Shown here: positions 1 through 1,484 of the stretch, piece by piece
Layout of the letters: every line of letters begins with the position of its first letter
Position numbering within the stretch: position 1 is the stretch's first letter
DNA from: Escherichia coli
GTDB taxonomy: Bacteria; Pseudomonadota; Gammaproteobacteria; Enterobacterales; Enterobacteriaceae
Assembly (NCBI RefSeq): GCF_003334315.1
Contig: NZ_QOWR01000021.1
DNA length: 64,000 bases
Reading direction: 5' to 3' (one strand)
Position numbers and translations under genes: made by a program
Notes under the pieces: generated by a model
What the model saw: the letters and a program-made list of their open reading frames with translations, nothing else
Database searches by the model: none
Told to the model about the DNA's origin: nothing

Positions 1-228
1 AGGCAGCACCTGGCACGGCTGGGACGGAAGTCGCTGTCGTTCTCAAAATCGGTGGAGCTGCATGACAAAGTCATCGGGCATTATCTGAACATAAAACACT
101 ATCAGTAAGTTGGAGTCATTACCCGAATTCAGACAAATATAAACAAATCCTGCTCAAAATTAAAAATTCTAACCGGTAAAAGATATTACTTAAACATGTA
201 AATTCACTTTCCTTTAAAAAACAAAAAA

Positions 229-258
229 CCGCCAAAATCAGGCGGTTTTTTGTTGCTG
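229..258 (+). terminator. Rho-independent terminator-like hairpin (aaccgcc..ggcggtt followed by T-run); A-run upstream makes it potentially bidirectional
   Basis: GC stem-loop followed by TTTTTTG read directly from the sequence. Confidence 0.6.
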
Positions 259-389
259 GTCCGGTTCGCGGCCTTTCCAGCAGGTTGTATTACCGTAGTA
301 ATGCAAGCGCGTCTCAGCGGAGACAATACTCGCCAGTAACTCTCTTTTTGTCAAGCAAAAGAGAGTTATTATTGTTCTGTTAGTGTATT

Positions 390-705
390 ATCCACTGCGG
401 CCCTTTCCGCCGTCTCGCAAACGGGCGCTGGCTTTAGGAAAGGATGTTCCGTGGCCGTAAATGCAGGTGTTTCACAGCGCTTGCTATCGCGGCAATATCG
501 CCAGTGGTGCTGTCGTGATGCGGTCTTCGCATGGACCGCACAATGAAGATACGGTGCTTTTGTATCGTACTTATTGTTTCTGGTGCGCTGTTAACCGAGG
601 TAAATAATAACCGGAGTCTCTCCGGCGACAATTTACTGGTGGTTAACAACCTTCAGAGCAGCAAGTAAGCCCGAATGCCGCCCTTTGGGCGGCATATTTT
701 AGATT
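390..705 (+). ncRNA. ryfA: Putative sRNA RyfA region (sseA-sseB intergenic), ending at the terminator hairpin 675-700; 5' end not determined
   Basis: RyfA is known to lie between sseA and sseB, convergent with sseB; strong + strand terminator abuts the sseB stop; no long ORF; boundaries are approximate. Confidence 0.35.
675..700 (+). terminator. Intrinsic terminator (atgccgccc-tttg-ggcggcat then ATTTT) overlapping the sseB stop codon
   Basis: Perfect 9-bp stem plus T-run seen in sequence. Confidence 0.6.
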
Positions 706-1484
706 ATCCGATTCTGTTTAAAGTCACGCAAAAAACCACCCCAGCGACGTTCATAGAATGGCGCAATATGTTCGGTAATAAAGTGGCTAATTCCTTTTTC
801 CCCTTTTTTCACCTGACAAATATCGATTGGTTCATCGCCAGGTAATGTATCGGTCGCTACACTTCCCGTCGCCTGAATAATTTCTTCGATATCACCATCG
901 GCTTCAATGCCAATAAGTAAATTAGGCTGTGCCTCTTCGTTCTCTTTAATTGAACAAATAAAAGCACGCTTCACCGGCTTAATGGTTTTAAATAAGGTGG
1001 TGAGTGAATCAATCATTTGTGCTGGCGGCTCTGCGACTTCCGATAATATCAGCGATTCACCGCCTTCCAGGATTTCCTGGCTGCTCAGCGGATTTCCCTC
1101 TTCACCAATCAACAAACTGATTTCACGCGGCATAAATTCTTTACCGGTTGGCAGTTTGGCATTAAGGAAGAGCGTTTCGCCAAGTGTCATCTCAAACAGC
1201 GTGCGAACGGGCATTACGACAAATGCCTGTTCGTCTTCAACCGCCTGTTGAAGTGCTTCTAACGAGGTGAAAAAAGGAATGACGCTGGTGCCGTCTTCTT
1301 TTTCCCAGTGCTGTAAATCAAGCGCGCTATCTTCAACCACAGCCTCGCCCTGCGCCGCCGTACCAGGCACCCAGACGGTGGATTCCAGTAGAGTACGGAA
1401 AAAGGCCGGGCGGTGCGCCGGTTCAGTTGCTGCTTTTTCCAGCAGGTCTTCAAGTTCGTTTTTTGTTTCGGACATAAGAACCAC
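699..1484 (-). CDS. sseB: Enhanced serine sensitivity protein SseB
   Basis: 261-aa ORF recognised as SseB; position between the ryfA region and pepB. Confidence 0.9.
   Translation of the reverse strand: MVLMSETKNELEDLLEKAATEPAHRPAFFRTLLESTVWVPGTAAQGEAVVEDSALDLQHWEKEDGTSVIPFFTSLEALQQAVEDEQAFVVMPVRTLFEMTLGETLFLNAKLPTGKEFMPREISLLIGEEGNPLSSQEILEGGESLILSEVAEPPAQMIDSLTTLFKTIKPVKRAFICSIKENEEAQPNLLIGIEADGDIEEIIQATGSVATDTLPGDEPIDICQVKKGEKGISHFITEHIAPFYERRWGGFLRDFKQNRII

Follow-up and report, generated by a model that had tools for sequence, protein, structure and literature searches.

In type I toxin–antitoxin loci of the hok/sok and tisB/istR-1 type, the toxin mRNA can be translated only after ribonucleolytic 5′ or 3′ processing. 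The closest described relative of the locus analyzed here is TimP/TimR of Salmonella enterica (Andresen et al. 2020, Eleftheraki & Holmqvist 2024, Eleftheraki et al. 2026), the only organism in which translation of the timP open reading frame (ORF), start-codon-dependent toxicity, an inner-membrane location with an uncleaved Sec-type signal, and repression by TimR have been demonstrated (PMC7667032). When the ATG at +145 was mutated in Salmonella, the peptide was no longer made and toxicity disappeared (PMC7667032). The Salmonella timP 5′UTR comprises four stem-loops, with the Shine-Dalgarno (SD) sequence locked in SL4 and an SL1–SL3 pseudoknot that is essential for translation (PMC11228461, PMC13000454); both the pseudoknot and the sequestration of the SD in SL4 were shown experimentally (PMC11228461). 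Pairing of site 2 with site 4 frees the SD, a competing site 1–site 2 pairing represents the inactive form (PMC13000454), and TimR binds SL2 (PMC11228461, PMC13000454). Salmonella timP reportedly needs no ribonucleolytic processing and is activated by refolding alone (PMC11228461, PMC13000454). Andresen et al. 2020 already noted that TimP can be encoded by every ryfA homologue in Rfam, that of E. coli among them (PMC7667032).

RyfA1/RyfA2 and RyfB1 of Shigella dysenteriae belong to the same locus family, with duplicated copies; the work of Fris et al. 2017, as cited in PMC7667032, regarded RyfA as non-coding and reported that a neighbouring antisense RNA lowers RyfA1 levels. The loci tisB/istR-1, shoB/ohsC, and zorO/orzO resemble timPR in encoding a small hydrophobic inner-membrane toxin behind a long structured 5′UTR that hides the ribosome binding site, and in having a divergent antitoxin sRNA with ~18–20 nt of complementarity to the 5′UTR rather than full overlap. 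Their toxins share no protein sequence similarity with TimP, and their mRNAs need nucleolytic 5′ processing, whereas the timP mRNA only refolds (PMC11228461, PMC13000454).

Here, we analyzed a stretch of E. coli DNA of 64,000 nt (the window). Positions 543..668 of its + strand are, with high confidence from sequence comparison, timP, the toxin gene of an enterobacterial timPR type I toxin–antitoxin locus carried on the 304-nt RNA that was originally described as the sRNA RyfA. The features of the timP transcript and its downstream neighbour are as follows.

386..391, + strand: likely −10 box (TATTAT) of the timP promoter, 6–7 nt ahead of position 397, where the annotated RNA begins
397..700, + strand: ryfA RNA, the timP mRNA, 304 nt; matches Rfam RF00126 over the full model (1–296) with 314.9 bits (gathering score 80)
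426..432, + strand: site 1, in SL1, the 5′ arm of the pseudoknot, pairing with 500..506
453..458, + strand: site 2, GGCCGU, pairing with site 4 (freeing the SD) or with site 1 (inactive form)
460..479, + strand: TimR target in SL2, AAUGCAGGUGUUUCACAGCG, equivalent to the SL2 site studied in Salmonella (PMC7667032, PMC11228461)
500..506, + strand: site 3, SL3 loop, GCCAGUG, the 3′ arm of the pseudoknot, pairing with 426..432
520..539, + strand: SL4, the SD-sequestering stem-loop (GCGGUCU/GGACCGC), from the Rfam consensus structure and the minimum free energy fold; its 5′ arm, 520..525, is site 4
531..535, + strand: SD-like AUGGA, in the loop and 3′ arm of SL4; includes ATG 531
543..668, + strand: timP coding sequence, 41 aa plus TAA; b4812 in K-12
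675..700, + strand: intrinsic terminator of the timP mRNA, stem ATGCCGCCC/GGGCGGCAT at 675..695, followed by ATTTTAGATT
699..1475, convergent with timP: sseB

A sequence-only reading of this DNA had proposed an unannotated small hydrophobic ORF within a putative ryfA transcript, in a layout resembling mRNA-like sRNAs that encode small membrane toxins such as Salmonella TimP. Apart from the label "unannotated", the core of this proposal stands. The ORF listing contains the frame exactly as described: on the + strand at 531..668, starting with ATG and encoding 45 aa (MDRTMKIRCFCIVLIVSGALLTEVNNNRSLSGDNLLVVNNLQSSK), with a second in-frame ATG at 543 and a TAA stop at 666–668. The supposed hydrophobicity of the N-terminal stretch is evident from a mean Kyte-Doolittle value of 2.86 for residues 5–17, compared to −0.68 for residues 18–41. 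The TimP peptide begins with a basic MKIR and continues with a 13-residue hydrophobic core, an arrangement compatible with a signal-like segment. The length of the ORF is not significant in itself, because 36 ORFs of 20 aa or longer touch the first 2.5 kb of the window and long antisense stop-free stretches occur as well. What raises it above chance is homology, namely frame conservation across genera (see below) and a match to the NCBIfam model NF040796 (toxic_TimP; 86.4 bits, curated whole-protein cut-off 45, E = 1.1e-24). In this match, residues 5–44 of the 45-aa form align to model positions 1–40 of 40, such that the alignment begins at the second ATG.

The K-12 MG1655 reference (NC_000913.3) lists timP as b4812, "putative toxic protein TimP", corresponding to window 543..668, together with ryfA b4440 (window 397..700) and timR b4811. 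In RefSeq, a CDS named timP is present in every inspected E. coli genome that retains the locus; in strain 720632, for instance, the annotated CDS equals window 543..668 exactly. The frame is therefore already known, having been described in 2020, captured in a curated NCBI family model, and named in K-12, and the sequence-only finding is a rediscovery. In a megablast search with 380..720, every one of the 5,426 complete E. coli genomes proved to carry the locus, with a coverage of at least 80% in 5,399 of them. The ryfA region shows only 90–95% identity among many E. coli genomes, the differences falling mostly in the TimR target site. With respect to the timP ORF, strain P276M is the exception: its ORF is disrupted by a rearrangement after approximately codon 8, and an sseB pseudogene lies alongside (L006, 1501..1760). 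Two database proteins (P0001, P0054) consist of TimP fused to read-through into an IS1 end, and the timP locus seems to be a recurrent IS1 target in E. coli.

The ORF lies inside the ryfA transcript as surmised, within the full-length RF00126 match, and this RNA folds with an energy z-score of −5.4 relative to shuffles. It starts at RNA position 147 (+145 in Salmonella, the equivalent of window 543) and stops 6 nt before the terminator stem, which is the placement expected of TimP in ryfA. The strong terminator that had been noted downstream is real (nine pairs, seven of them G-C, a loop of 3, and a T-rich tail, in agreement with the terminator hairpin of the Rfam model), although its distance from the stop codon had been given as 7 nt and is 6 nt to the stem as called. 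The assumed location between the sseA side and sseB likewise stands in part: sseB adjoins the locus, as in Salmonella, while sseA is absent from the window, the left edge of which (1..119) is the end of an IS1 element. Yet a genome that shares this IS1 junction has sseA on the far side of it, and timPR occupies the position between sseA and sseB that it has in Escherichia. Upstream, the TATTAT at 386..391, which the consensus promoter scan did not list, is likely the −10 box of the timP promoter, and GTATTAT is invariant in six aligned E. coli alleles.

The elements of the Salmonella translation switch can be recognized in the window. All seven pairs of the pseudoknot between sites 1 and 3 are formed in 19 of 19 homologues, with compensatory double changes at three of the seven (e.g., UA/CG 10:9). 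The six pairs between site 2 and site 4 (525..520) are formed in 18–19 of the 19, and the site 1–site 2 pairing is likewise present in the window. SL4 is paired in 99% of cells over the 19 homologues, an invariance that was imposed by our search pattern and hence carries no weight. Taken over the 19 homologues, the whole structure is 96.8% paired, compared to 33–49% for slid-partner controls, and the observed covariation score was reached by none of 500 shuffles. A weak SD had been suspected from the sequence; the AUGGA at 531..535 fits this description and is, moreover, sequestered in a stem-loop. The window thus carries the SL4-locked SD, the pseudoknot of sites 1 and 3, and the site 2–site 4 pairing of a timPR-type locus.

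Since protein searches reached only Escherichia-type relatives, we took the cross-genus evidence from DNA. A single-sequence phmmer search against 1.84 billion representatives returned five Escherichia-type proteins only, with no Salmonella or Yersinia relatives, and the matches of a word-indexed protein search were confined to Escherichia, Shigella, and mislabelled Klebsiella entries. We therefore derived a DNA pattern from the most conserved part of the Rfam consensus and searched species-representative genomes, which yielded 22 loci from seven genera (Escherichia, Citrobacter, Superficieibacter, Yersinia, Rahnella, Pantoea, and Erwinia). This pattern fixed SL4, the A of the ATG, and an AAR second codon, all of which are consequently conserved by construction. 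The genome-wide pattern, which demanded an exact SL4, did not recover the Salmonella locus; Citrobacter orthologues, which share its 38-aa length and Leu18/Ala20/Asp21 (as in PMC7667032), served as a stand-in for Salmonella TimP in the comparison. All 20 scanned loci are RF00126 members, with scores of 179–313 bits.

Conservation of the frame across enterobacterial ryfA loci had been named in advance as a test of the ORF, and the outcome is favourable. The ATG at the 543 position occurs in 22 of 22 loci, only its A having been fixed by the pattern, and the ORFs that are not cut by contig ends encode 38–42 aa with a shared N-terminus, MK(I)R(Y/C)xCI(V)L(I/V)V(S/F/T)GA. In a 21-sequence alignment, all indels within the ORF are 3 or 6 nt long, and the stop codon falls at a common column in 20 sequences. 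Entropy is highest at the third codon position (0.905), intermediate at the first (0.748), and lowest at the second (0.55), while the summed pairwise pN/pS amounts to 0.28 over the first 18 alignment columns (N-terminal) and 0.64 over the remainder (C-terminal). Read from the alignment, this pattern is the signature of a translated frame, in which the hydrophobic N-terminus is constrained and the tail changes rapidly, in line with what has been described for the family (PMC7667032). Together with the covariation of the switch elements, it argues that selection acts on both the timP frame and the translation switch, in Escherichia as in the other genera. The window peptide carries the same N-terminal motif (MKIR..CIVL.VSG) as the Citrobacter orthologues; it differs from Salmonella TimP in its length of 41 rather than 38 aa and in its C-terminal half (NNNRSLSGDNLLVVNNLQSSK), which is poorly conserved, so that overall identity to the 38-aa Citrobacter TimP is 42%. 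We dropped the argument that the frame is open in all homologues, as equally long stop-free stretches exist in other frames and on the opposite strand. For the window sequence, membership in the family, conservation of the reading frame, the pseudoknot, and both the SD-releasing and the inactive-state pairings (sites 1–4) are in this way borne out by comparison.

Of the competing explanations, the one that survives best is that E. coli RyfA acts solely as a regulatory RNA and that the timP frame is a conserved-looking relic without functional translation. Experimental work in pathogenic strains gives this idea its weight. In uropathogenic E. coli (UPEC) CFT073, ryfA alleles with a destroyed ORF still complement all ΔryfA phenotypes, comprising fimbriae, motility, oxidative stress, and macrophage survival (PMC8205139). 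In avian pathogenic E. coli (APEC), deletion of timR has a minimal effect (PMC13188913); the same study leaves a toxic peptide from E. coli ryfA to be determined and cites work in Shigella and APEC strain FY26 in which, as cited there, no peptide was demonstrated. No ribosome-profiling report covering the timP ORF in E. coli turned up in our literature searches, and, as several frames of this structured RNA are free of stops over long distances, openness by itself says little in favour of coding. Against a purely non-coding RyfA stand the frame, ATG, and stop kept across seven genera, with indels in multiples of three only and a constrained N-terminus, as well as an SD translation switch that is conserved with covariation and would have no obvious use in a non-coding RNA. 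Moreover, the complementation results show that the peptide is dispensable for the phenotypes in question, not that it is absent. We therefore regard an RNA-only RyfA as improbable. A dual role of RyfA, as regulatory RNA and as toxin mRNA, fits all data. Such a combination of RNA-level phenotypes (of UPEC and APEC RyfA) and a small ORF on one transcript is also found in SgrS/SgrT, RNAIII/delta-hemolysin, and SR1/SR1P, from which the present case differs in that TimP is a toxin homologue and not a partner in the same pathway; in the literature examined, we found no direct base-pairing targets of E. coli RyfA.

A further alternative accepts translation but places the start at ATG 531, giving the 45-aa protein drawn for UPEC CFT073 (+135 to +270). 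ATG 531 is in frame and opens the longest version of the ORF, and the UPEC paper that adopted it predicted a Sec signal sequence at residues 1–22 of the 45-aa version of the CFT073 allele (PMC8205139). However, the codon at 531 is AAG in 7 of the 22 homologous loci, a change that turns AUGGA into AAGGA, a better SD, and that marks ATG 531 as part of the SD element rather than a start codon. ATG 531 also lies inside SL4, and, because it overlaps the sole SD-like element, it is left without an SD of its own. In addition, the Salmonella start-codon mutation that abolished synthesis and toxicity affects the equivalent of 543 (PMC7667032), the NCBIfam model aligns from residue 5, and both the PGAP annotation and the K-12 reference start at 543. 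The 45-aa product is thus very unlikely, and the alternative start that the sequence-only reading had allowed finds no support in conservation, although one UPEC paper used it; on the comparative evidence, 543 is the start codon. Least credible of all, to the point of being negligible, is the idea that the gene at this site is instead a 71-aa minus-strand ORF (434..649, starting with TTG), with the + frame as its shadow: it is the longest ORF across the interval and stop-free antisense stretches of 64–94 codons exist in all homologues, but these vary in frame, position, and extent between taxa, the least-variable second codon position fits the + frame, no inspected genome record annotates it, and the mapped transcript runs on the + strand with its own terminator, so that we judged it a by-product of composition and the 3n indel pattern. 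Two short upstream ORFs in the 5′UTR (444..518 and 461..607) were rejected as candidates, since mutation of the uORF AUG in Salmonella was without effect (PMC11228461).

With timP translated from 543 as the preferred reading, a mechanism can be proposed by homology with Salmonella. The primary transcript would fold such that the weak SD (AUGGA, 531..535) is locked in SL4, and the inactive conformer would be kept by the pairing of site 1 with site 2. A structural switch would then lead to an active conformer, in which the pseudoknot 426..432 × 500..506 forms and 453..458 pairs to the 5′ arm of SL4, exposing the SD for initiation at AUG 543. Binding of the antisense RNA TimR to SL2 (460..479) would destabilize the pseudoknot and block translation. 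The N-terminal part of the 41-aa TimP would serve, as in Salmonella, as a Sec signal that escapes cleavage and tethers the peptide to the inner membrane, which would become leaky when TimP is overproduced. That the E. coli peptide is produced and toxic, we infer from homology with Salmonella.

We then turned to the antitoxin side of the locus. In most of 28 loci, the timP segment at −60 to −41 from SL4 shows 16–24 nt of continuous complementarity to a segment of the opposite strand ~150–160 nt upstream; as TimR is encoded on the opposite strand and is complementary to timP, the pair appears as a direct repeat on the + strand. The paired sequence varies by lineage, being GCAAGCGCGTCTCAGCG in E. 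coli SOI121, E. coli PA45B, and E. whittamii, CAGGCACCCCACAGTG in O157, CAGGCACACTCTCGTGCT in Yersinia aldovae, and AACGCAGGCGCAGACTAGCG in Rahnella, and this co-variation of antitoxin and target supports a working antisense pair in those lineages. Within E. coli, at least three types of TimR seed and timP SL2 target co-vary within the locus (A, GCAAGCGCGTCTCAGCG; B, CAGGCACCCCACAGTG; C, GCAGGTGTTTCACAGCG). No Rfam family for timR was found at E values up to 1; weak matches at 179..341 (OrzO-P, AgrB, rimP-leader, rnk-leader, Phe-leader) lie far below their gathering scores and stem from the terminator hairpin region. In three loci, from C. amalonaticus (L027), Y. aleksiciae (L026), and Y. similis (L019), a deletion that takes away SL1 and both promoters has joined the body of timR to the SL2 region of timP. 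The timP frame is still open in these loci; the fusions apparently arose by recombination between the timR seed and its direct-repeat target, and the three loci are probably dead.

Upstream of timP, the window contains the following elements.

1..119: end of an IS1 element, ending at 119 and inserted in the apparent remnant of a first timP copy, between the annotated timR (outside the window) and timR-2
92..265, + strand: Rfam RF00125 "IS128", the 5′ part of which is displaced by IS1 in the window
220..318, − strand: second timR-like gene, "timR-2", divergent from timP and homologous along its length to timR b4811
294..318, − strand: 5′ segment of the timR-2 RNA, 5′-GCUGAGACGCGCUUGCAUUACUACG
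for comparison, outside the window: segment of the timR b4811 RNA, 5′-GCUGUGAAGCACCUGCGUUGCUCAU

The timR-2 gene, for which neither K-12 nor the inspected RefSeq records carry an annotation, has a terminator hairpin at 254..220 and, in its promoter region (319..396), a minus-strand −35 element (TTGACA, 354..349). Positions 263..396 are identical to the sole timR and promoter region of single-copy loci, e.g., that of strain SOI121, whose single timR perfectly matches its own timP. In the window, the seed of timR-2 is A-type and the timP target is C-type, and the two share 11 continuous base pairs, or 20 nt with two mismatches and three G-U pairs. By comparison, the 5′ end of timR b4811 forms 20 continuous pairs with the window timP. 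To quantify this difference, we computed duplex energies limited to the seed, i.e., the 25-nt TimR 5′ seed against timP 460..479. RNAduplex runs on the entire 5′UTR and upstream segments had been dropped: they gave very large energies, which are uninformative because the two regions are related as a degenerate direct repeat that extends beyond 100 nt. The seed energies with the window timP were −36.9 kcal/mol for b4811 TimR and −26.1 kcal/mol for timR-2, compared to −36.8 kcal/mol for the cognate pair of SOI121, −20.4 kcal/mol for a non-cognate pair, and −14.1 ± 3.2 kcal/mol for shuffled sequences. These values predict b4811 to be the stronger timP repressor. The window contains, in timR-2, a divergent timR-like gene with an intrinsic terminator and a 5′ end complementary to SL2, its pairing being imperfect.

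In K-12-type genomes, a second timR adjoins sseA and is the annotated copy b4811. A b4811-type timR also lies upstream of IS1 in a genome with the same junction as the window (L029), and at the matching site in an IS1-less genome (L001) and in K-12; the cognate antitoxin gene therefore lies just outside the window, and on the far side of IS1 in a junction-sharing genome, sseA and the b4811-type timR are indeed intact. The IS1 insertion, flanked by a 9-bp target duplication (CGAATTCAG), is rare, its junction being shared by only about 6–9 of the 5,426 complete E. coli genomes. What separates the two timR copies begins with a timP promoter and the initial 17 nt of a timP 5′UTR, joined to an AT-rich segment; this "IS128" segment ends at the terminator of timR-2 in K-12-type genomes and is carried by ~1,874 of 5,426 genomes. 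Judged from this arrangement, "IS128" appears to be a decapitated, decayed first timP copy. The K-12-type arrangement would accordingly resemble that of Shigella dysenteriae in preserving the remains of a tandem duplication, with the difference that in the window the first timP copy is degenerate, leaving one timP and two timR genes, and it departs from Salmonella timPR in its two timR paralogues.

While the sequence upstream is identical to SOI121, the timP 5′UTR of the window is identical to strain DLL7555 at 143 of 146 positions, which marks the locus as a mosaic. Window 255..500 was matched at 99% or more in 1,557 of 5,426 genomes, K-12 included. We tentatively propose, as a scenario that may well prove wrong, that E. 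coli maintains at least three co-varying specificity alleles of TimR seed and timP target, and that the K-12-type haplotype (~1,560–1,870 of 5,426 genomes) is a mosaic of a C-type timP, its cognate b4811 ~300 bp further upstream, and an intervening unannotated A-type timR with intact promoter and terminator, the pairing of which is ~11 kcal/mol weaker. Elsewhere in the window, the ohsC antitoxin RNA at 47100..47176 (+ strand; RF02495, 106.8 bits) marks shoB/ohsC as a second type I toxin–antitoxin locus, and the other Rfam matches (iscRS, GlmY, rncO, AsrC, and the REP-type naRNA4/ES036) are ordinary for this chromosomal region.

Relative to the literature examined, the new elements are only the cross-genus support for the start at 543 and the duplicated, allele-mismatched timR of K-12-type strains. 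The cross-genus comparison confirms 543 as the start, against the 531 of one UPEC paper, and the E. coli allele retains the pseudoknot, the SD-releasing, and the inactive-state pairings that govern translation in Salmonella. If the proposed haplotype structure is correct and timR-2 is expressed, K-12 would possess two antitoxin RNAs of unequal strength for one toxin; alternatively, an expressed timR-2 could be an orphan antitoxin with other targets. The duplicated timR is a minor lead, in that a strain deleted for the annotated timR alone would still have another antitoxin gene with partial complementarity.
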